Assembly (NCBI GenBank): GCA_963665275.2 | Contig: CAXXIN010000013.1 | Coordinates: 1 to 64,000, forward strand | Source: Negativicutes bacterium | GTDB lineage: Bacteria > Bacillota > Negativicutes > UBA1444 | Direction of reading: 5' to 3' | DNA: 64,000 bases | In this document: positions 18,965 through 31,373 of the stretch, piece by piece | Numbering within the stretch: the stretch's first letter is position 1 | Layout: each line of letters begins with the position of its first letter | Position numbers and translations under genes: made by a program | Notes under the pieces: model-generated | Seen by the model: only the letters and a program-made list of their open reading frames with translations | What the model was told of the DNA's origin: nothing | The model's database searches: none

Positions 18965-19731
18965 TTACATATCTAACAGTCGGTAATGGTGTTCGGACAA
19001 AGGGGTAAATCCATGTTTTCGGTATAGCGATATAGCCGGCAAGTTATCTTTTAGGACCTGCAAATACAATTGATCTGCACCATTACACAAAGCCCACCCG
19101 GCAAGAGCGCGGAGCAGCGCTGCCGCCGCCCCTTTCCCCCGGTGTTCTGCGTCAACGACAATATTACTCAATCCTGCCCACCCTCTCTCTATACCACTAC
19201 ACTTCCGAGTGCGATTAACTTCCCGTTATCACAGAGGCTAACAAACGACTTCTTGGGACCAATCGCGGAAAATATATGGATATACCCATCATAACGAGCA
19301 GGCGAGTAACCTTCTAATCTCATAAAATCATAAATCCACTCACTACTCGCTTCTCCCGCGAACTCAGCTGTAAATCGATCAGACTCCGCGGAGAGAGCAG
19401 GCATCACCTCACTACATGATGCGATCATCGTGTAGCATTCAAACATCTTACGATATCCGCTAGAATGCAGGATATCATCTAATTCTGCTGGTGATGCCTC
19501 GCCGATATAGAAGCAAGGCAAAAGCGATCGTTGCCTATAAAAATTCTCTACAACTTCCAGCCATTCCCCGTACTCAGGAAAAGCGCCGCAGGTATACACA
19601 GAATTTGCCCGCTTTGTTACGCCCAGATTTGCCCGCAATCTCCACTCTCCCAGCGTTTGCTGGATGTACGAAGGCCAACTATTGGCTGCGAGTTCTTCAA
19701 TGAATCGAACAAGTTTTATATCGCCCCGCAC
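18965..19731 (-). CDS. GNAT acetyltransferase, split by a frameshift near 19190
   Basis: N-part GVTKRANSV; C-part HRGKGAA...YLQV..N..A..LY..GF; the frames join near VV-ERGWAG. Confidence 0.75.
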
Positions 19732-19801
19732 AGGTTCCTCTCCTTTTCAGCTACTACGCTCTGCCACATCACTGCATACGCTTAAATTTAGCACACAACC
19801 C

Positions 19802-23379: not shown

Positions 23380-24291
23380 GTGGACGGAATGAAAAGAATG
23401 CTGGTGGTTGCTCTTGTATTAGCCTTTATGGTAAGCGTAGCGCCGTTCGCGGCGACCGCGTCAGCGGAAGGTCAAAAATTATCGGCCGAACAACTTAACC
23501 AGATTACAACGGAAATACTCAATACGCTGCGTGATGAGCCAACCGGCGGCCAAATAATTGCCAGAAGTGAGCTTGATGCGATGCTGGCTAAATACGCCCG
23601 CGGCATTTCCGGCGGCGGCATGATGTATACCAAGATAGCCAACGGTGATTTTGAAAAAAGAAACAACAAATGGGAACTGGGTAAAGAAGTGACCCGCATG
23701 GAAAACTGGGTGCAAATGGCAGGAGGCTCGAATCCCTCCATGCGCATGGAAATTTTAACTTTGGCGGGCGGAAACAAGCCTGTGGGAAATATTGACGTGA
23801 CCCTGATCAAATACGATGATAATTTCACCTATATGTACACATGGGTAAAGTGGGAAAAAGAAGGTACATTAATAAAAATTCCCAAACAATTCTTTAAAGG
23901 CCTTCCAGATCCGACGCAGCATAAAGTTCCCGAGGATAAGACTCCTGATGGAAAAGCAATTCTTTTCGACGACCAGACAGTAAACGAACAGCTTTGCAAG
24001 GTTTATAGTCGCACCGGCGCCAATCCCAAATTAGGTGATCCTCAATCAAGTTATCACTGGTTTTCCACAGATAAAGGATTTGATATTATCGACGCCTCAT
24101 ACCAGCGGGACGGCAACAAAATTAAGCAAAAATCAATGATTACCTTTGAACGGATTGGCAGCGGTCTGGACGCCAGTTTTTTCAATCCGCCTTCTGATGT
24201 AAACTTTAAAGAAAGTGGCCCTTCTAGTGATTCAGGCAAGCCTGAAGACAGCAATAAACCAAAAATGAAGTTTAATCCCTTTGGTTTTTAG
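23380..24291 (+). CDS. Secreted hypothetical protein, C-terminal LolA/DUF4412-like beta fold
   Basis: Signal peptide; VNEQLCKVY...WF...LDASFFNPP pattern. Confidence 0.65.
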   Translation: MDGMKRMLVVALVLAFMVSVAPFAATASAEGQKLSAEQLNQITTEILNTLRDEPTGGQIIARSELDAMLAKYARGISGGGMMYTKIANGDFEKRNNKWELGKEVTRMENWVQMAGGSNPSMRMEILTLAGGNKPVGNIDVTLIKYDDNFTYMYTWVKWEKEGTLIKIPKQFFKGLPDPTQHKVPEDKTPDGKAILFDDQTVNEQLCKVYSRTGANPKLGDPQSSYHWFSTDKGFDIIDASYQRDGNKIKQKSMITFERIGSGLDASFFNPPSDVNFKESGPSSDSGKPEDSNKPKMKFNPFGF

Positions 24292-24348
24292 GTGAGTGGC
24301 ATATCGTCTTTTCCGGGCTGCAATTTACTAAGACCAATAATGTACATT

Positions 24349-24399
24349 TAAGTAAAGCATCCATAACTTACCAAAAGTAAGTTATGGATGCTTTACTTA
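24349..24399. repeat. Hairpin repeat copy 2 (bidirectional terminator)
   Basis: TAAGTAAAGCATCCATAACTTAC-CAAAA-GTAAGTTATGGATGCTTTACTTA perfect arms. Confidence 0.75.
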
Positions 24400-24455
24400 T
24401 AAATATCGGTCCAACGGCGAAACTTATACTTTTATTATGTCTTTTAGAAGCAACA

Positions 24456-25295
24456 TTATATCATAGGATTAAAAATACTATTATCAACGCGTCCAAATCC
24501 GATGGGGAACCCTTCAAGATGCCAATATGAATCATAATAAGTGACCTTTTGGTGCTCACCTACCAACTCATTATGACATTTTATTAGAGAAGCAACTAAG
24601 TTTACATGCTCCCGTACTATTTCATCATTTAAAATTGTGTGAAAGGTTGGAAAGCCGATTGTCTTGAGATAGCTGTTATTGAATTTTACCATTTCAGGCA
24701 AGTGTACCACTATCATAATAAATCCATCATTTATGATAGTGCTGATAAGCTCAATTATCTCTGTATCTAAATCACTATAGTAACGGTTTTGTATTTCCCT
24801 TAGAGACAAAACAAACATTGAACAACTGTCATGCAACCAAGAATACCATGGCGTATTTTTTAGTGATGACTGCGAGGATGGTTTGTAAATATCCAAATAC
24901 TTTACGTTCGTTATGTATCGTTCCTCTAATAATGCACTTTCAGCCGATTTGTACTCAGTTTTAGGAAGCATATCGCCAGTAGCTGCATATATAGACATGA
25001 AAAAGGCATTATGGTTTTTTAAAATACTTCCAAGTTCACGTAATGCAACTAACTGCCGACGTTTTTGCTCTTTTTCTCTAATTACTTCTTGCACCCTATC
25101 ATACAAAGTTATTACTAAGATACTTCCAATTAAGCCAGACCCCATATTTAGCAGCCCGTTATTTAGCCACGATTGCGTATACTCGGTAAGATTTAACCAA
25201 TTAGGACAATATTGCTGATAATACGCAGCAAATAGCATTATAAAACCCAGAACCCCAATTCCTATAAGAATAAAACTAAAATAATTCGATAACAT
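24456..25295 (-). CDS. AT-rich hypothetical protein with two N-terminal TM helices
   Basis: Two hydrophobic segments then a charged helix; AAGGAG upstream; composition unlike the core genome. Confidence 0.7.
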   Translation of the reverse strand: MLSNYFSFILIGIGVLGFIMLFAAYYQQYCPNWLNLTEYTQSWLNNGLLNMGSGLIGSILVITLYDRVQEVIREKEQKRRQLVALRELGSILKNHNAFFMSIYAATGDMLPKTEYKSAESALLEERYITNVKYLDIYKPSSQSSLKNTPWYSWLHDSCSMFVLSLREIQNRYYSDLDTEIIELISTIINDGFIMIVVHLPEMVKFNNSYLKTIGFPTFHTILNDEIVREHVNLVASLIKCHNELVGEHQKVTYYDSYWHLEGFPIGFGRVDNSIFNPMI

Positions 25296-25351
25296 TTCGA
25301 TGTGTTTTTCTCCTTCTGTAATTCTTCTATATAGTCCTCATTATCCGAGAC

Positions 25352-25406
25352 GTTGCTAGGGGACGGGGTTGTACACAAAATGTCACCAACTCCGTTCCCA
25401 TGACAC
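25352..25406. repeat. Inverted pair of REP-like elements
   Basis: GGGGACGGGGTTG facing its near-complement CAACTCCGTTCCC, ending TGACAC; GC-rich islet in AT-rich DNA. Confidence 0.5.
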
Positions 25407-25425
25407 CCATCATTTCTGAACCATA

Positions 25426-26862
25426 TTATAACTTTTCAAGTAACAATCGCTCTAATTCAAGCATACTTAACAATGAGCGATGTACCACTTCTGGAGTTAC
25501 AAAAAGAATTCTTCCATGCATTAAGTCATTTCGTTCTTTATCCTGCCTTATTTTTGTTATTAGGCTATTTATCATTCTTGATTCAACTTTTGAAACTATT
25601 TTATGACTTAATAAAAATTTTGAGAAAGAAAAAACGGATGGTGGTTTCTTTGGTAAAGAATCTGGTATTTTAATTTCTTTATTTTCCGCGACAATAGGGC
25701 AAACTTCGCATATCCCTGCCCCTTCATAATATTTGTTGAAGTGCTCAACTATGTTATGTTTCTCACATAATTTATTCCCCAGGGATACCAACATAGCTTC
25801 AAAAGATGAGTTTATGTTATAGAAAGCCTCTGTTGGCAGACCATTCTGCAAGTTAATTTTCGCTGTGATTTCCAAGTTTTTGTATAGAGGCAATGGTTCT
25901 GTACCATTAAGATTTTGCATTAGTTCAGATATTTGGGGGGTGCTAAGAAAATTGATAGTGTTCACGACATCCGCTAAGGCATTTCCACCAAAGGACATCG
26001 CAATTGAAGACTTAATTTGTATACCTGCCCCAGTAAATAATGAAGTATGAAAATTTCCAATATGATTAATTACTACTCGTGAAATAAAAGAAGTCGGTTC
26101 AATGTTTAATATATATTGGTTAAACAAATTAATAACTTCTAAAGCTCTACCCATATTACTAAATTCATATCCTTGCATTTCAAGCGATGGTCCCTGCCAG
26201 TATCCATTGGTACTTGTTGACCCCTTCATACGAATTGTTAAATTCGTAAAGAACCGGTTACCAGCTAGGGATACAACATCATCTTTAAATTTATGCTTTA
26301 AAGTCACATTTATGGCGTTATAAATATTTGCCACTGGATAACTTCCCTCTGGTAGAGGGATAGCAAATGGCAATTCAAATGAATATTCATAATATGGAAG
26401 AAGTCCGTTTTCGAAGTCCGTAACTAAAGGTTCAAAAGATTCTATGAAGCCAAAAAAAATTTGTTTTTTCTCATCCGCTGCTAGATTTTTGATTCTATGC
26501 TTGATACACTCGCAAATTTCGATTAGTATTGGATCAAATTGCTGTTTGTCATTGAAATAGTAATACGTAAGACATTCTAAGTATCGTTCTAAATGGCAGA
26601 TAAACTGTTCTTCTGAGCAAGGCAATTCTTTAGATTGAAAAGGTACTATTTCAAAATACTTATCATAGAGTCTTTTTGCGTCATAATAACAGTCTAATTC
26701 ACTTGCGGAAAGTGCTGCATAAGAAATTGATAAAAGGAAAAAGGTAAATCTAGCACCGTTTTTAAACTTACTATCAAAATTGTTGTTGAGTACAGTTAAT
26801 CCTGCTTTCACTGATTCAATATATTTTTGAGTTTCCCAATATTTCAGAGCTGGTATATCCAC
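25426..26862 (-). CDS. AT-rich protein with C-terminal HEPN-like RxxxxH motif
   Basis: RNDLMH in a helical C-terminus; CEVC; probable GTG start 26862 after AAGGAG. Confidence 0.65.
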   Translation of the reverse strand: MDIPALKYWETQKYIESVKAGLTVLNNNFDSKFKNGARFTFFLLSISYAALSASELDCYYDAKRLYDKYFEIVPFQSKELPCSEEQFICHLERYLECLTYYYFNDKQQFDPILIEICECIKHRIKNLAADEKKQIFFGFIESFEPLVTDFENGLLPYYEYSFELPFAIPLPEGSYPVANIYNAINVTLKHKFKDDVVSLAGNRFFTNLTIRMKGSTSTNGYWQGPSLEMQGYEFSNMGRALEVINLFNQYILNIEPTSFISRVVINHIGNFHTSLFTGAGIQIKSSIAMSFGGNALADVVNTINFLSTPQISELMQNLNGTEPLPLYKNLEITAKINLQNGLPTEAFYNINSSFEAMLVSLGNKLCEKHNIVEHFNKYYEGAGICEVCPIVAENKEIKIPDSLPKKPPSVFSFSKFLLSHKIVSKVESRMINSLITKIRQDKERNDLMHGRILFVTPEVVHRSLLSMLELERLLLEKL

Positions 26863-26895
26863 ATTGTGCCACTCCTTTTTCATATGTTACTTACG

Positions 26896-26958
26896 ATAAT
26901 AGCAAAAGGACTCCCGCCAAATTTCTACAAAAATTAGCAGAAGTCCTTTTGCTATTAT
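26896..26958. terminator. rlmH terminator
   Basis: ATAATAGCAAAAGGACT...AGTCCTTTTGCTATTAT inverted repeat overlapping the rlmH stop. Confidence 0.8.
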
Positions 26959-27122
26959 AAATGATACTTCTCGCCCCGCGCGATCTTGAACGCCCTATAT
27001 ATCTGCTCCACGAGCAGCAGTCTGATCATCTGGTGGGTGAAGGTCATGCGGGAAAAGGAAAGACGCTCTCGCGGCCGCCGCAACCACCGCAGACGACAGC
27101 CCAAAAGCGCCACCGATCAAAA
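26955..27122 (-). CDS. rlmH: 23S rRNA m3Psi1915 methyltransferase, 3' exon (one extra base at 27073-27074)
   Basis: FLIGGAFGL then, after a +1 shift, [38 protein letters not shown]-stop. Confidence 0.92.
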
Positions 27123-29001
27123 ATCGAGTAGGAGGGGGCGGCGAGCCCCCGACCTCTCACACCACCGGACATGCGGGTCCGCATCCGGCGGTTCCCAAGG
27201 ATTGACGAAGTTTTCCATAGTGTGCAAGCAAACTCAACAGCCCTTGACGTTCCCAATAGGTAACGTCGAGGGCATTATTTGTGTTGCGGGGCCATGGCCC
27301 AGGGTCCCTTGCTGGATTTGGCCATCATCCACGCCGCCCACTCCGGTACGCCCAGCGCCCGGAGGTTTCGGAAACGTGTCCACGCCCTCTTCCATTGTTT
27401 CCAGAGGCACATGCGCAGTCGCCGCCGTAACCATTGGTCCAGTTCCCCGCAATGCTTCTTGGCCGATGCCACATGGAAATATCCAATCCAGCCCCGCAGA
27501 TACTGGTTAACCTGCCGGATTCTTTCTTCCATCGCCACGGACCATGTTCGGTTCGTGAGTTGTCGGATTCTCTCCTTGCAACGCTCCAGCGTCTTTGGCG
27601 CTAACCGGATGGTTCCCGCTTTGTCGTTCAAGAAACTAAAGCCAAGAAACTTTCGCTTCCACGGTCGGTCTACTGCACTCTTCTCCCGGTTTACCTTGAG
27701 TTTGAGCTTGCCTTCCACAAACCGGACCACCGATTCCATCACCCGAACTCCTGCCCGCCTGCTTCGCACGAACAAGTTGCAGTCGTCCGCGTAGCGGACG
27801 AACCGATGCCCGCGCCGCGCCAGTTCCCGGTCCAAGTCATCGAGCAGAATGTTCGACAATAGCGGACTCAACGGACCGCCCTGCGGCGTTCCCTCTGTTG
27901 TCCTACTTACTACGCCACATTCCATGACTCCGGCGCTTAAGTAACTGCGGATGAGTTTCAGAACTCGTTTGTCTCCCACTCTTCGCGCCACCCGCGCCAT
28001 CAACATGTCGTGGTTGACCCGGTCGAAGAATTTCTCTAGGTCCATGTCCACGACAAACCGATAGCCTTCCCGGATGTGTTCCTGCGCCCGCCGGATTGCG
28101 TCATGCGACCGTTTCCCCGGCCGGAAGCCGTAGCTTTCCGGGCTGAAGTAAGGATCGAATATCTGGGTCAGTGTCTGCAGAAGGGCCTGCTGGATCAGGC
28201 GATCCAATACGGTTGGGATACCCAGCGCCCGCGTCCCGCCTCCGGGTTTTGGAATGTCCACCCGTTTCACGGGTTGCGGCCGGTAAGTTCCCGTTCGGAG
28301 CTGTTCTTTAGTTGTTTCCCAGTTGGTCTGGAGATATCCCGCCAGTGTGGCGGTATCCATCCCGTCGACGCCGGGAGCTCCTCCGTTTTGTTTCACCCGC
28401 TGGTAGGCGCGTTTCATGTTTTCCCGCTCCAGCGTTTTCTCCAGCAGTTCACCAGGGTCTTCGCGAGAGGGCAGGTCCACTTGTGCCGGTGATGGGCTCA
28501 GCGCTCCGGCATACTTTTGCGGCTTCACCGCTACTTTTTGCCGTAAGCCTTCTTCTGAAGTTGGCTGCTGTAATTGCTCATCACGCGAACGCATAGTTTC
28601 CCTCTCTTTCTTTGGGTTCGGCCCTTCCGGCGCGGCGTCCCGCTCTCCGTACTATGGCCTCGGCTGACTCCTGCGATTTCAGCGCCGCCTCACGGCGGCG
28701 GTTGCCGACTCAGTCGGCGTGACCGCAGGCCTCCCCGGATAAGAACGTCATCTTTCCACTCATGCACCTGCCCAAGTTTACTGCTTCAGCCCTTGGCGGC
28801 TTCGGACTTCGTCTTCTCGTGCAGACTCGTCCGGCTGAAACAGCCTCAAATTGGGTTCGTATACCTCAGGTCGAGCATTTGCCTCCAGCTTCCTTCAGAT
28901 TCCGTCTCGCGACGGACACCCTTGCTCTTGGCTAACGGTAGGCGCTCGCCAGCCCCCGCTCGGGACTTTCACCCTATAGACGACGCCCATGCCGGGCGTA
29001 C
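27123..29001 (-). mobile_element. Group II intron, class IIC, 1879 nt
   Basis: 5' GTACGCCCGGCATGGG; domain V GAACCGCCGGATGCGGACCCGCATGTCCGGTGGTG with CGC triad; domain VI ending CTACTCGAT; RT ORF inside. Confidence 0.95.
27275..28594 (-). CDS. ltrA: Group II intron reverse transcriptase/maturase (no endonuclease domain)
   Basis: GAPGVDG, IPKPGGGTRALGIP, DLEKFFD, GTPQGGPLSP, RYADD, FLGF; native C-terminus probably continues to 27157 after an extra base in G4 at 27288-27291. Confidence 0.95.
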   Translation of the reverse strand: MRSRDEQLQQPTSEEGLRQKVAVKPQKYAGALSPSPAQVDLPSREDPGELLEKTLERENMKRAYQRVKQNGGAPGVDGMDTATLAGYLQTNWETTKEQLRTGTYRPQPVKRVDIPKPGGGTRALGIPTVLDRLIQQALLQTLTQIFDPYFSPESYGFRPGKRSHDAIRRAQEHIREGYRFVVDMDLEKFFDRVNHDMLMARVARRVGDKRVLKLIRSYLSAGVMECGVVSRTTEGTPQGGPLSPLLSNILLDDLDRELARRGHRFVRYADDCNLFVRSRRAGVRVMESVVRFVEGKLKLKVNREKSAVDRPWKRKFLGFSFLNDKAGTIRLAPKTLERCKERIRQLTNRTWSVAMEERIRQVNQYLRGWIGYFHVASAKKHCGELDQWLRRRLRMCLWKQWKRAWTRFRNLRALGVPEWAAWMMAKSSKGPWAMAPQHK

Positions 29002-29317
29002 ACGTGATGTCGCCGTGCCCGGCAGTACCGAGCGCGGCGATTTTTTTTGAAAGTTCTTCAGACGACAAGGGTTGCCCCACCACATCGAGCACGATGAGAT
29101 AGGTGGATGCCGGGACTTTTTTCAGCAGGCGTTCGCCTTCCGCCGCGAGAGTTTTGTCTTTCTCCGCAGGTGACGGATCATCCGGCATGCGTTCTTCATC
29201 GATCTCGATGATTTCCAGTTTGCAAAGAGGCCCCAGGCGTTTGACAAATTCACGGATGCCTTCCGTCAGGTATTTTTCTTTGATTTTTCCGACGGCAACG
29301 ATCCGAATTCTATTCAC
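29002..29317 (-). CDS. rlmH: rlmH 5' exon (105 codons + 1 nt)
   Basis: IVAVGKIKEKYL...EGERLL...SSEELS...GDIT; follows htrA as in other Firmicutes. Confidence 0.93.
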
Positions 29318-29320
29318 AGG

Positions 29321-30439
29321 CTACTCGTTGGGGATTTCGCTGAGTTGAGCCTGCGCCGTGAACTGACTGCCATTGCGAACAACCACCACAGGAACGGTAG
29401 CTCCCACGCCCTGCGCTTCAATGATCGAGCGCAGCTCAGCCAGACTATTCGTTTCCTGCCCCGCCAGCTTCAGAATGACATCTCCTACACGGACTCCAGC
29501 TCGGTCAGCCGGCGAATTTGCTACGATGCGGAACACATACAGGCCCTTTTCGATGTTCAGCTGATAGCCATAACGCTGCGCCGAACTCTTGTCGAACGCC
29601 ACCACGCCGAGATAAGGCCGGACCACTCGCCCTTTCTCGATCAGCGATTGAATAATCGGCTTGGCGGTATTAAAAGGGATGGCGAAGCCGATGCCCTCGA
29701 CGCCGCCCACCGCAATCTTGATGCTGTTGATGCCAACGACTTCCCCGTCAGCATTCGCCAACGCTCCGCCGCTGTTGCCGGGATTGATGGCCGCATCCGT
29801 CTGAATCAGGCGGAAGCGCCGTTCGCCGATATCCAGCGTCCGATTCAGCGCGCTGATAACACCGGCGGTCACGCTGCCCTGAAGCTCCAAGCCGAGCGGG
29901 TTGCCGACGGCAATCGCGGGTTCCCCCACTTGCAGGCTGTCAGAATCACCGAAACGAGCTGGTTGCAGCCCGGTCGCCTCGATCTTGACCACAGCCAAAT
30001 CCGTCGCCGGGTCAACGCCCTGTACCTTTCCCGGCACAGTCCGACCATCGGACAAGGAGACCACGATTTCCTGCGCCTCGGCCACCACGTGGTAATTGGT
30101 GACAATATGGCCGCTTGCGTCGTATATGACTCCGGAGCCGCTGCCACGTTCGACCAGCGTTTTGCGATTGAACATGTCACTGACATAGGCCTTGTTCGTA
30201 ATGCCCACAACCGAAGGGCCGACGATCTGAGCGGCCCGCACAATCGGGGTATTCCGGGCTGGCGAGAGGGCAGCTTTGGCTGTCGGGTTCACTACTTCAT
30301 TTTTCAGCGCAGATACCGCATCAGGCAAGGATTTTCCGATAAAAAAAGGTCCATATCCCAAAACCAACCCGCCGCCGATCACAGCGCCCAACAAAGCGAT
30401 GATCAGGACCGGTGCGTATTTTTTGTAAATCAATTTCAT
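29321..30439 (-). CDS. htrA: HtrA-family serine protease with PDZ domain
   Basis: TNYHVV, DLAV, QTDAAINPGNSGG, C-terminal PDZ. Confidence 0.93.
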   Translation of the reverse strand: MKLIYKKYAPVLIIALLGAVIGGGLVLGYGPFFIGKSLPDAVSALKNEVVNPTAKAALSPARNTPIVRAAQIVGPSVVGITNKAYVSDMFNRKTLVERGSGSGVIYDASGHIVTNYHVVAEAQEIVVSLSDGRTVPGKVQGVDPATDLAVVKIEATGLQPARFGDSDSLQVGEPAIAVGNPLGLELQGSVTAGVISALNRTLDIGERRFRLIQTDAAINPGNSGGALANADGEVVGINSIKIAVGGVEGIGFAIPFNTAKPIIQSLIEKGRVVRPYLGVVAFDKSSAQRYGYQLNIEKGLYVFRIVANSPADRAGVRVGDVILKLAGQETNSLAELRSIIEAQGVGATVPVVVVRNGSQFTAQAQLSEIPNE

Positions 30440-30509: not shown

Positions 30510-31286
30510 CTAAAGAGAAAAACTGACTGTGTCTGACGGATGCGTCAGGTGCAAAAACAAGTCCTGTTCCAGGCGCACTCCCTGTCGGTCAAGAACCTGC
30601 TGCACGGTCGACAGGGCCAGGTCGGGGCAATTGTTATGCTGACTTAGGTGCGCCAAAAAAACGTGCATCCCCGCTTTCTTGCCGATGCGAGCCAGGCAGC
30701 GGCCGGTGTCCAGATTGGATAAATGCCCGCGATTGCCCATGATGCGTTTTTTAAGGTAGTCTGGATACGGACCGTTACGAAGCATAGTCACGTCATGGTT
30801 CGACTCGAGCACCATCAGGTCGGCGTTGGCGATATCCTGCTCCACCCGCTCCGATACGCAGCCCATATCTGTTGCAACTACACACTTCATATCGCCGTGG
30901 CGGAACGAATAGCCCACAGGTTCTGCGGCATCGTGCGAGATCGCGAACGGTTCGACGAATACGCCGCCGATCTCCAGACGATTTCCCAGCTCACGCCGAA
31001 ACTCAGCCTCCACGTGATGCTTGGGCTGAAACGCGTCCCAGGTCCGCCGCCGCGTAAAAACCGGGACTTTAAACTTACGCGTGAAGACCGGCAACCCACT
31101 GACATGGTCGCTGTGCTCATGCGTAACCAGGATGGCGTCTAATTCGGAAGGATCCAGCCCAACCCCGCGCAGGCCTTTTTCAACGCGCCGGGCGGATATG
31201 CCGGCGTCCACGAGGAACCTCACGCCGCCGATTTCGAGGAAGACCGCATTGCCAGTGCTGCCACTGGCGAGAATATGTAATTGCAT
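30510..31286 (-). CDS. walJ: MBL-fold hydrolase YycJ/WalJ
   Basis: LASGSTGN, THEHSDH, ESNHD, GHLSN, AHLS; upstream of htrA-rlmH. Confidence 0.88.
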   Translation of the reverse strand: MQLHILASGSTGNAVFLEIGGVRFLVDAGISARRVEKGLRGVGLDPSELDAILVTHEHSDHVSGLPVFTRKFKVPVFTRRRTWDAFQPKHHVEAEFRRELGNRLEIGGVFVEPFAISHDAAEPVGYSFRHGDMKCVVATDMGCVSERVEQDIANADLMVLESNHDVTMLRNGPYPDYLKKRIMGNRGHLSNLDTGRCLARIGKKAGMHVFLAHLSQHNNCPDLALSTVQQVLDRQGVRLEQDLFLHLTHPSDTVSFSL

Positions 31287-31373
31287 ACTATATCGTTTCG
31301 TCCCATCTGTCACAGATTCCTGCCAACAATAAGAAAAGACCCGGTCGAGCCGGGTCCGATTCAACCACTATTG

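Follow-up and report, generated by a model that had tools for sequence, protein, structure and literature searches.

Class C group II introns are described as inserting after transcription terminators or attC sites and avoiding coding sequence, and bacterial group II introns in general as interrupting important genes only occasionally (PMC4424553, PMC8919778, PMC7306698). Two described members, B.h.I1 of Bacillus halodurans and O.i.I1 of Oceanobacillus iheyensis, are small ribozymes that contact the exon by only 3–4 base pairs between exon-binding site 1 (EBS1) and intron-binding site 1 (IBS1), recognize a stem-loop of the 5′ exon and insert after terminators (PMC1702495, PMC4424553). Here we describe a class IIC intron inside the rRNA methyltransferase gene rlmH of a Negativicutes bacterium (assembly GCA_963665275.2). 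The window analyzed is the whole stretch of 64,000 nucleotides from contig CAXXIN010000013.1, positions 1 to 64,000. Like B.h.I1 and O.i.I1, this intron uses terminators in three of its four own copies and in nine of nine copies from relatives; unlike them, it also occurs, in its fourth copy, behind a hairpin built of codons and lacking a U-run, in the middle of a conserved open reading frame (ORF).

Sense insertion into a bacterial housekeeping gene has been described for the recA intron of Geobacillus kaustophilus (cited in PMC7306698) and for the IIB1 introns at the groEL stop codon (PMC12584367). Those introns home to a specific sequence, whereas the rlmH intron belongs to the structure-targeting class C. 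In the Lactococcus lactis rlmH::ISS1 mutant, too, a mobile element interrupts rlmH, but there a laboratory transposon was combined with a plasmid-borne IIA intron, while here the class IIC intron itself disrupts the gene in a natural genome (PMC7938551). A literature search for group II introns together with rlmH returned no report of an intron in this gene, although the supplementary tables of PMC7306698 and PMC8919778 may list class C introns inside genes.

RlmH is the SPOUT methyltransferase that forms m3-pseudouridine 1915 of 23S rRNA. Its gene lies on the minus strand in two pieces, delimited by PF02590 matches and by alignment with nine relatives. Exon 1 (29002–29317, GTG start at 29317) holds codons 1–105 and the first base of codon 106; exon 2 (26955–27122) begins with the U that serves as IBS3 and ends with the TAA stop at 26955–26957. 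PF02590 (RlmH) matches exon 1 at 29003–29311 (model positions 2–100, 77.5 bits) and exon 2 at 26961–27101 (model positions 108–154, 63.2 bits, in another frame as assembled), both above the cut-off. These are the only two matches of the family in the whole genome, which thus has a single rlmH. The gene sits in its conserved context, downstream of genes for an HtrA-type protease (Trypsin_2 and PDZ domains; 29321–30439, minus strand) and an MBL-fold hydrolase (30510–31364, minus strand); the htrA–rlmH adjacency is described for Gram-positives (PMC12826053).

Exon 1 ends with ...GACATCACGT at 29002 and exon 2 starts with TTTTGATCGG at 27122. The intron between them (27123–29001, minus strand) is 1879 nt long as assembled and 1878 nt in the other three copies of this genome. 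All four copies have common ends (5′ GTACGCCC... / GTACGCCCGG...; 3′ ...CTACTCGAT) and unrelated flanks, which fixes the intron at these positions. Joining the exons by script restores the conserved frame across the junction (...GDIT|FLIGG...) and yields a full-length RlmH family match, colinear with nine uninterrupted relatives of 159–161 amino acids (aa). At the DNA level, the joined sequence aligns without gaps at the junction to these nine genes (eight of the same genus, one of a sister genus), with 77.8–84.9% nucleotide identity. A reading made earlier from the sequence alone, without database searches (hereafter the sequence-only reading), had placed the break at 29002 and the resumption at 27122, with the conserved DIT-F-LIGG regained on excision, and the shared ends and the uninterrupted relatives agree with it on each point. 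No target-site duplication is present in rlmH, and since its absence is the signature of reverse splicing, we take this to be the mode of insertion. With boundaries two bases upstream (GUGUA...CUCG) the frame would be kept as well; they were rejected because GUACG follows UU or CU, not GU, in related introns, and the bases just before it covary with EBS1.

Three Rfam models match the intron above their gathering scores: RF02001, which we take to be the model of O. iheyensis-type introns, at 28744–28916 (129.6 bits), RF01998 at 28621–28704 (66.4 bits), and the domain V/VI model RF00029 at 27123–27193 (44.2 bits), ending exactly at ...CUCGAU. The first two delimit a core of domains I–IV at 28621–28916 (minus strand), the third domains V and VI at 27123–27193 (minus strand), where the bulged A stands 7 nt away from the 3′ end. 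At the catalytic triad of domain V, CGC is aligned here with the consensus AGC, and CGC at this position is a hallmark of class IIC.

The reverse transcriptase (RT)/maturase ORF of the rlmH copy spans 27275–28594 (minus strand) as assembled, codes for 439 aa and matches RVT_1, GIIM and the GsI-IIC RT. In the other three copies the ORF codes for 478 aa (for example, L002 1535–2971), with its stop codon 34 nt short of the intron end, at the equivalent of about 27157 in the window. The 478-aa intron-encoded protein contains RVT_1 and GIIM only, with no endonuclease domain, and its best solved relative is the GsI-IIC RT of Geobacillus stearothermophilus (6ar1; residues 50–465, E 6.2e-173), followed by other group II RT/maturases. 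Both proteins consist of a reverse transcriptase, a maturase/thumb and a C-terminal DNA-binding part. The rlmH-intron ORF differs from GsI-IIC in an N-terminal extension of about 45 residues and in reading on through domain V, passing the end of the GsI-IIC RT by 13 further codons in its intact form; the intron also differs in starting with GUACG and in having one copy inside a coding gene. Judged by domain content and matches to solved structures, the element is a class IIC group II intron, complete and in sense orientation; its class and its place within the rlmH coding sequence are those proposed by the sequence-only reading.

The intron starts with GUACG instead of the canonical GUGYG, a deviation that the same reading had pointed out. 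It is shared by four of four copies in this genome and by eight of eight copies at 92–94% identity in two congeners, while GUGCG is found in two of two copies at 77% identity. By this distribution, GUACG is a lineage variant in an intron that has clearly moved; it is neither a defect of the rlmH copy nor a ground for excluding the element. In a small alignment of domain I, A at the third intron position goes with GGU(A)... and G with GGA(A)...; we make no claim of ε–ε′ compensation for GUACG, as ε′ could not be placed.

The four copies, one in rlmH, two on contig C7 and one on C3, differ by no substitution and one indel, and the ribozyme of the rlmH copy is letter-for-letter that of the other three. 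Judging from the lack of substitutions, the intron is recently active, and near-identical copies at four different sites point indirectly to retromobility. The three other copies all follow terminators: each is preceded, at a distance of 3–6 nt, by a hairpin whose energy is −22.8 to −26.1 kcal/mol by RNA parameters (−14.0 to −17.7 kcal/mol by DNA parameters), and two of these hairpins are followed by a T-run. In the congeners G003, G010 and G011 all nine copies with a readable 5′ flank stand behind terminator-like hairpins (−19.8 to −30.6 kcal/mol), at a spacing of 4–11 nt. An estimate of copy number from sequencing depth (intron/flank ratio about 6–9 in X1 and 8–10 in X5) was left unused, as contigs of other organisms are summed in it.

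EBS1 (ACGA, 28817–28820, minus strand) lies in a terminal loop of domain I and was identified by covariation with the 5′ flank. IBS1 of the three other copies reads UCGU, UCGU and GUGU, and the first base of their 3′ exon is U. Across four intron lineages EBS1 and IBS1 covary as ACGA/UCGU, GACA/UGUU, ACAA/UUGU and AUAA/UUAU. The GACA loop is that of the G003/G011 lineage, where flanks end in UGUU, GGUU or UGCU; ACAA stands behind UUGU in a G010 copy and AUAA behind UUAU in a G011 copy. At rlmH, IBS1 is ACGU (29002–29005, minus strand) and forms three of the four pairs. Both this count and the position of EBS1, which the sequence-only reading had taken from an alignment with the O. iheyensis intron, are thereby confirmed. 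Exon sequences upstream of IBS1 have nothing in common among copies, so that pairing is limited to the 3–4 bp of EBS1–IBS1, with no IBS2.

A hairpin of the kind found at the other targets precedes the insertion site in rlmH as well. Folding the 45 bases before the site gives a minimum free energy structure at 29010–29040 (minus strand; TCGCCG.GCTCGGT-ACT-GCCGGGC.CGGCGA), with 13 pairs, a loop of 3 nt and one 1×1 mismatch. Formed by the codons for I-A-A-L-G-T-A-G-H-G-D, it is separated from the insertion site downstream by 8 nt and lacks a U-run; as expected from the latter, a simple terminator scan did not flag it. With RNA parameters its energy (−23.7 kcal/mol; −12.9 with DNA parameters) equals that of the three terminator targets. 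The spacing of 8 nt agrees with the 4–11 nt of relatives and with the 3–11 nt given for B.h.I1 (PMC1702495). For comparison, the 31,035 free CGT|T sites of this genome have a mean of −8.2 kcal/mol (standard deviation 4.1), and −23.7 is reached by 14 of 6000 sampled sites, or by 56 of all 31,035 in a manual count of the enumeration. The sequence-only reading had named a smaller hairpin, GCCG-GGCA-CGGC, as a mimic of the usual target. Its letters are present, but the best fold is the larger structure; the idea of mimicry is supported, with the 13-pair hairpin in the place of the 4-pair one.

The hairpin is kept in all eight congeners with the locus (homologous sites L028–L036), at −20.3 to −26.1 kcal/mol. 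Between two subclades, two stem positions show compensatory changes from G-C to A-U, each combining a non-synonymous substitution on the 5′ side of the stem with a synonymous one on the 3′ side. In the hairpin alignment 88.4% of cells are paired, compared with 28–42% when the partner is slid. Such conservation hints that a structure of the RNA or DNA within rlmH is under selection. Outside the family the hairpin is mostly absent, 19 of 21 loci reaching only −2.9 to −15.2 kcal/mol. In the two others, which come from another genus (L007, L008), this place is occupied by a different hairpin of 11 pairs (−24.7 kcal/mol).

Considered as a whole, the locus is probably best explained by a class IIC intron that was drawn to a coding hairpin in rlmH, with the gene now expressed via splicing. 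A recently active intron, usually residing behind Rho-independent terminators, would have reverse-spliced into the sense strand of rlmH in an ectopic retrotransposition onto a terminator-like coding hairpin. Two features would have guided it: a stable stem-loop, provided by the genus-conserved 13-pair hairpin, and the short IBS1/IBS3 match of ACGU|U against EBS1 ACGA. We infer that the hairpin directed the insertion. The insertion is clean, and rlmH would be expressed only from transcripts with the intron excised and the exons ligated; because the gene is single-copy, it follows logically that RlmH is made only after splicing. At least partial splicing may be expected, as the ribozyme is identical to that of the other copies, three intact RT/maturase genes could work in trans, and the stem-loop by which class IIC ribozymes hold the 5′ exon is retained, as B.h.I1 needs its stem-loop to hold the 5′ exon for ligation (PMC1702495). 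RlmH would in this case be reduced, not abolished. On these grounds we lean, with some reserve, towards productive splicing.

The deposited assembly holds two frameshifts, both overlooked by the sequence-only reading. In exon 2 an extra C (27073–27074, minus strand; CC where nine of nine relatives have one C, GCGGCGGCCGCG versus GCGGCGG-CGCG) shifts the frame by +1 after ...AVVAAA, so that the conserved RlmH end ...YHL lies in a frame other than that of the junction. Were it genuine, rlmH would be a pseudogene, spliced or not. In the intron, a C-run (27288–27291, minus strand) has one C more than its counterparts in the three other copies; this shortens the RT ORF to 439 aa, with the loss of about 30 residues aligning with the C-terminus of the GsI-IIC RT. 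A 3331-nt contig of X1 matches 26700–27151 (452 bases) with a sole difference, one base omitted at 27073. Comparison with the congener G007 shows frameshifts that split 5 of 67 conserved ORFs, mostly at short homopolymers (window 18968–19746 and, elsewhere in the genome, G000 C13:92517–93796, C12:91810–92387, C5:37698–38556 and C3:133068–134229), and completeness is 92.6% despite only 20 contigs. The assembly thus appears to carry indel errors, and for these reasons we judge the exon 2 frameshift quite probably to be one of them. The extra C in the intron is absent from contigs of X1, X5 and X6, but such contigs collapse all copies and drop rare variants; an assembly error may be presumed here too, though the collapsed contigs do not decide it.

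Several observations weigh against our reconstruction. IBS1 at rlmH is one pair short, and the hairpin stem contains two G-U pairs and one mismatch. Of the 56 free CGT|T sites that are equally stable, about 11 lie in long open frames too, and in four congeners an uninterrupted rlmH retains ACGT|T together with the hairpin. Since these sites stand empty and comparable ones exist, the rlmH site is permissive and not compelling: the hairpin allows insertion without forcing it. The unspliced frame continues past 29002 for 35 intron codons before a stop (a 140-aa ORF), and ribosomes running this far on unspliced mRNA may disturb ribozyme folding. A natural copy, B.h.I1(X), whose stem is mispaired and whose IBS1 is weaker by one pair, is reported to give no ligated exons in vitro (PMC1702495). 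Each of six RNA runs contained at most 0.07 of the sampled words, the locus not being represented in them. The overlaps of contigs into the intron (27 and 29 letters, see below) stay under a 31-letter rule for bridging, and exon 2 and the RT gene of this copy are frameshifted as deposited.

The short overlaps bear on a possible assembly artefact, in which a four-copy repeat was wrongly placed in an rlmH that is really uninterrupted. The intron is indeed a 1.9-kb repeat in four copies and the assembly has indel errors. However, X1 contigs reach the first 27 intron bases from exon 1 and the last 29 from exon 2, and a contig of X5, which comes from another sample and study, crosses the exon 1 junction, likewise as far as 27 bases, with no mismatches over 626 bases; that they stop soon after is expected, because a k-mer contig meets a repeat there. 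No intron-less joint of 27122 to 29002 is reported in the contigs of X1, X5 or X6, the genome has no second rlmH, and the junctions are base-exact at the IBS1/IBS3 match behind the hairpin. With these overlaps and the base-exact site, mis-assembly of the junction, which the sequence-only reading had named as a danger, is very unlikely, and we regard a wrongly placed repeat as highly improbable.

A plain insertional knockout deserves more weight, although we consider it rather unlikely. Here the same ectopic retrotransposition would be followed by failing or negligible exon ligation, and rlmH would be dead, starting to decay and tolerated as dispensable. Such a state would fit the +1 frameshift of exon 2 and the truncated RT ORF as assembled, and it finds parallels in B.h.I1(X), whose stem is weak and whose IBS1 lacks one pair and which yielded no ligated exons in vitro (PMC1702495), in the viability of the complete L. 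lactis rlmH::ISS1 knockout (PMC7938551) and in the description of class C introns as rarely transcribed and avoiding coding sequence (PMC7306698). Yet the exon 2 frameshift is missing from the X1 contig, which agrees with the assembly in all else across 452 bases, and an assembly with 5 of 67 genes split is error-prone. The exons are otherwise free of gaps and stops when compared with relatives, and the ribozyme is identical to three copies that have evidently moved recently. If inefficient splicing is counted in, a functional knockout becomes a substantial possibility, at most somewhat short of an even chance. Splicing-dependent expression of rlmH from a hairpin-directed insertion remains the explanation we prefer; the sequence-only reading was right in substance, and the intron is real and well defined, in an unusual place.

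If so, the rule of following terminator structure here leads a class C intron into a conserved gene. A stem-loop and 3–4 paired bases would suffice without a U-run, which makes coding hairpins a liability. The locus also offers a natural substrate for asking whether a class IIC intron splices productively from mRNA in vivo. In addition, its target is the one rRNA methyltransferase experimentally linked to the control of group II intron retrotransposition.

Class IIC introns depend on an endonuclease-independent, replication-fork-linked route. In L. lactis, Waldern et al. (2021) found that the rlmH::ISS1 knockout raised retrotransposition of Ll.LtrB by 20.1 ± 1.5-fold and left retrohoming unchanged; the effect was complemented by rlmH, was traced to lost m3-pseudouridine and weaker binding of ribosomes to the intron RNA, and concerned retrotransposition that is likewise linked to replication forks (PMC7938551). 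According to a 2025 review, it is unknown if RlmH control of introns exists in other Gram-positives (PMC12826053); the present strain would let it be tested in one. We can also imagine that the intron gates its own restraint, with poor splicing lowering RlmH, the restraint lifted and the intron promoting its own spread, an appealing but improbable scenario. If true, the rlmH copy, standing in a transcribed operon and not behind a terminator, would be the expressed master copy, the burst of identical copies would be explained, and this would be a natural retroelement disabling its own host control. The choice of rlmH is suggestive, but it may be a coincidence: about a dozen coding sites, rlmH among them, are comparable, no second rlmH broken by an insertion was found among the 390 genomes of the class that have the gene, and the congener G011 combines at least seven intron copies with an intact rlmH.

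The survey of the class covered 401 genomes, 390 of which have rlmH, and no second intron-split rlmH was found among these 390. Judged by the best E-value of each genome among the matches listed (260 others are not among them), only G000, G013, G027, G226 and G375 lack a full-length match; G000 is the genome described here. In G226 a stop or frameshift leaves adjacent pieces (L076, L077), and the pieces in G375 and G027 and one of those in G013 run to contig ends. G013 has the N- and C-terminal parts on different contigs (L046 on C273 and L045 on C29, respectively), the C-terminal part following an unrelated ORF, and G027 has two copies of positions 40–154 at contig ends (L047, L048). No Rfam family was found beside the G013 and G027 pieces in the stretches scanned.

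A relation between rlmH status and intron load was considered and dropped, as no simple correlation exists: G011, with its intact rlmH, has at least seven intron 5′ ends. These lie, together with at least seven 3′ ends, at contig ends (L050, L057, L060, L063–L073), are 91–94% identical to the rlmH intron and differ from it in their EBS1 (GACA), which suggests that in G011 a sister intron with a new target specificity has expanded independently.

Directly after the rlmH stop lies a long perfect inverted repeat (26897–26957), likely the operon terminator. The simple terminator scan missed this palindrome; a plant miRNA model matched it on both strands with a score under the threshold, and the X5 contig terminates within it. 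Immediately downstream of rlmH, window positions 24000–27000 form a low-GC island (33–38% GC versus 53–60% around) with a 485-aa ORF (25426–26883, minus strand) that has no Pfam or PADLOC match. The island is probably acquired DNA.

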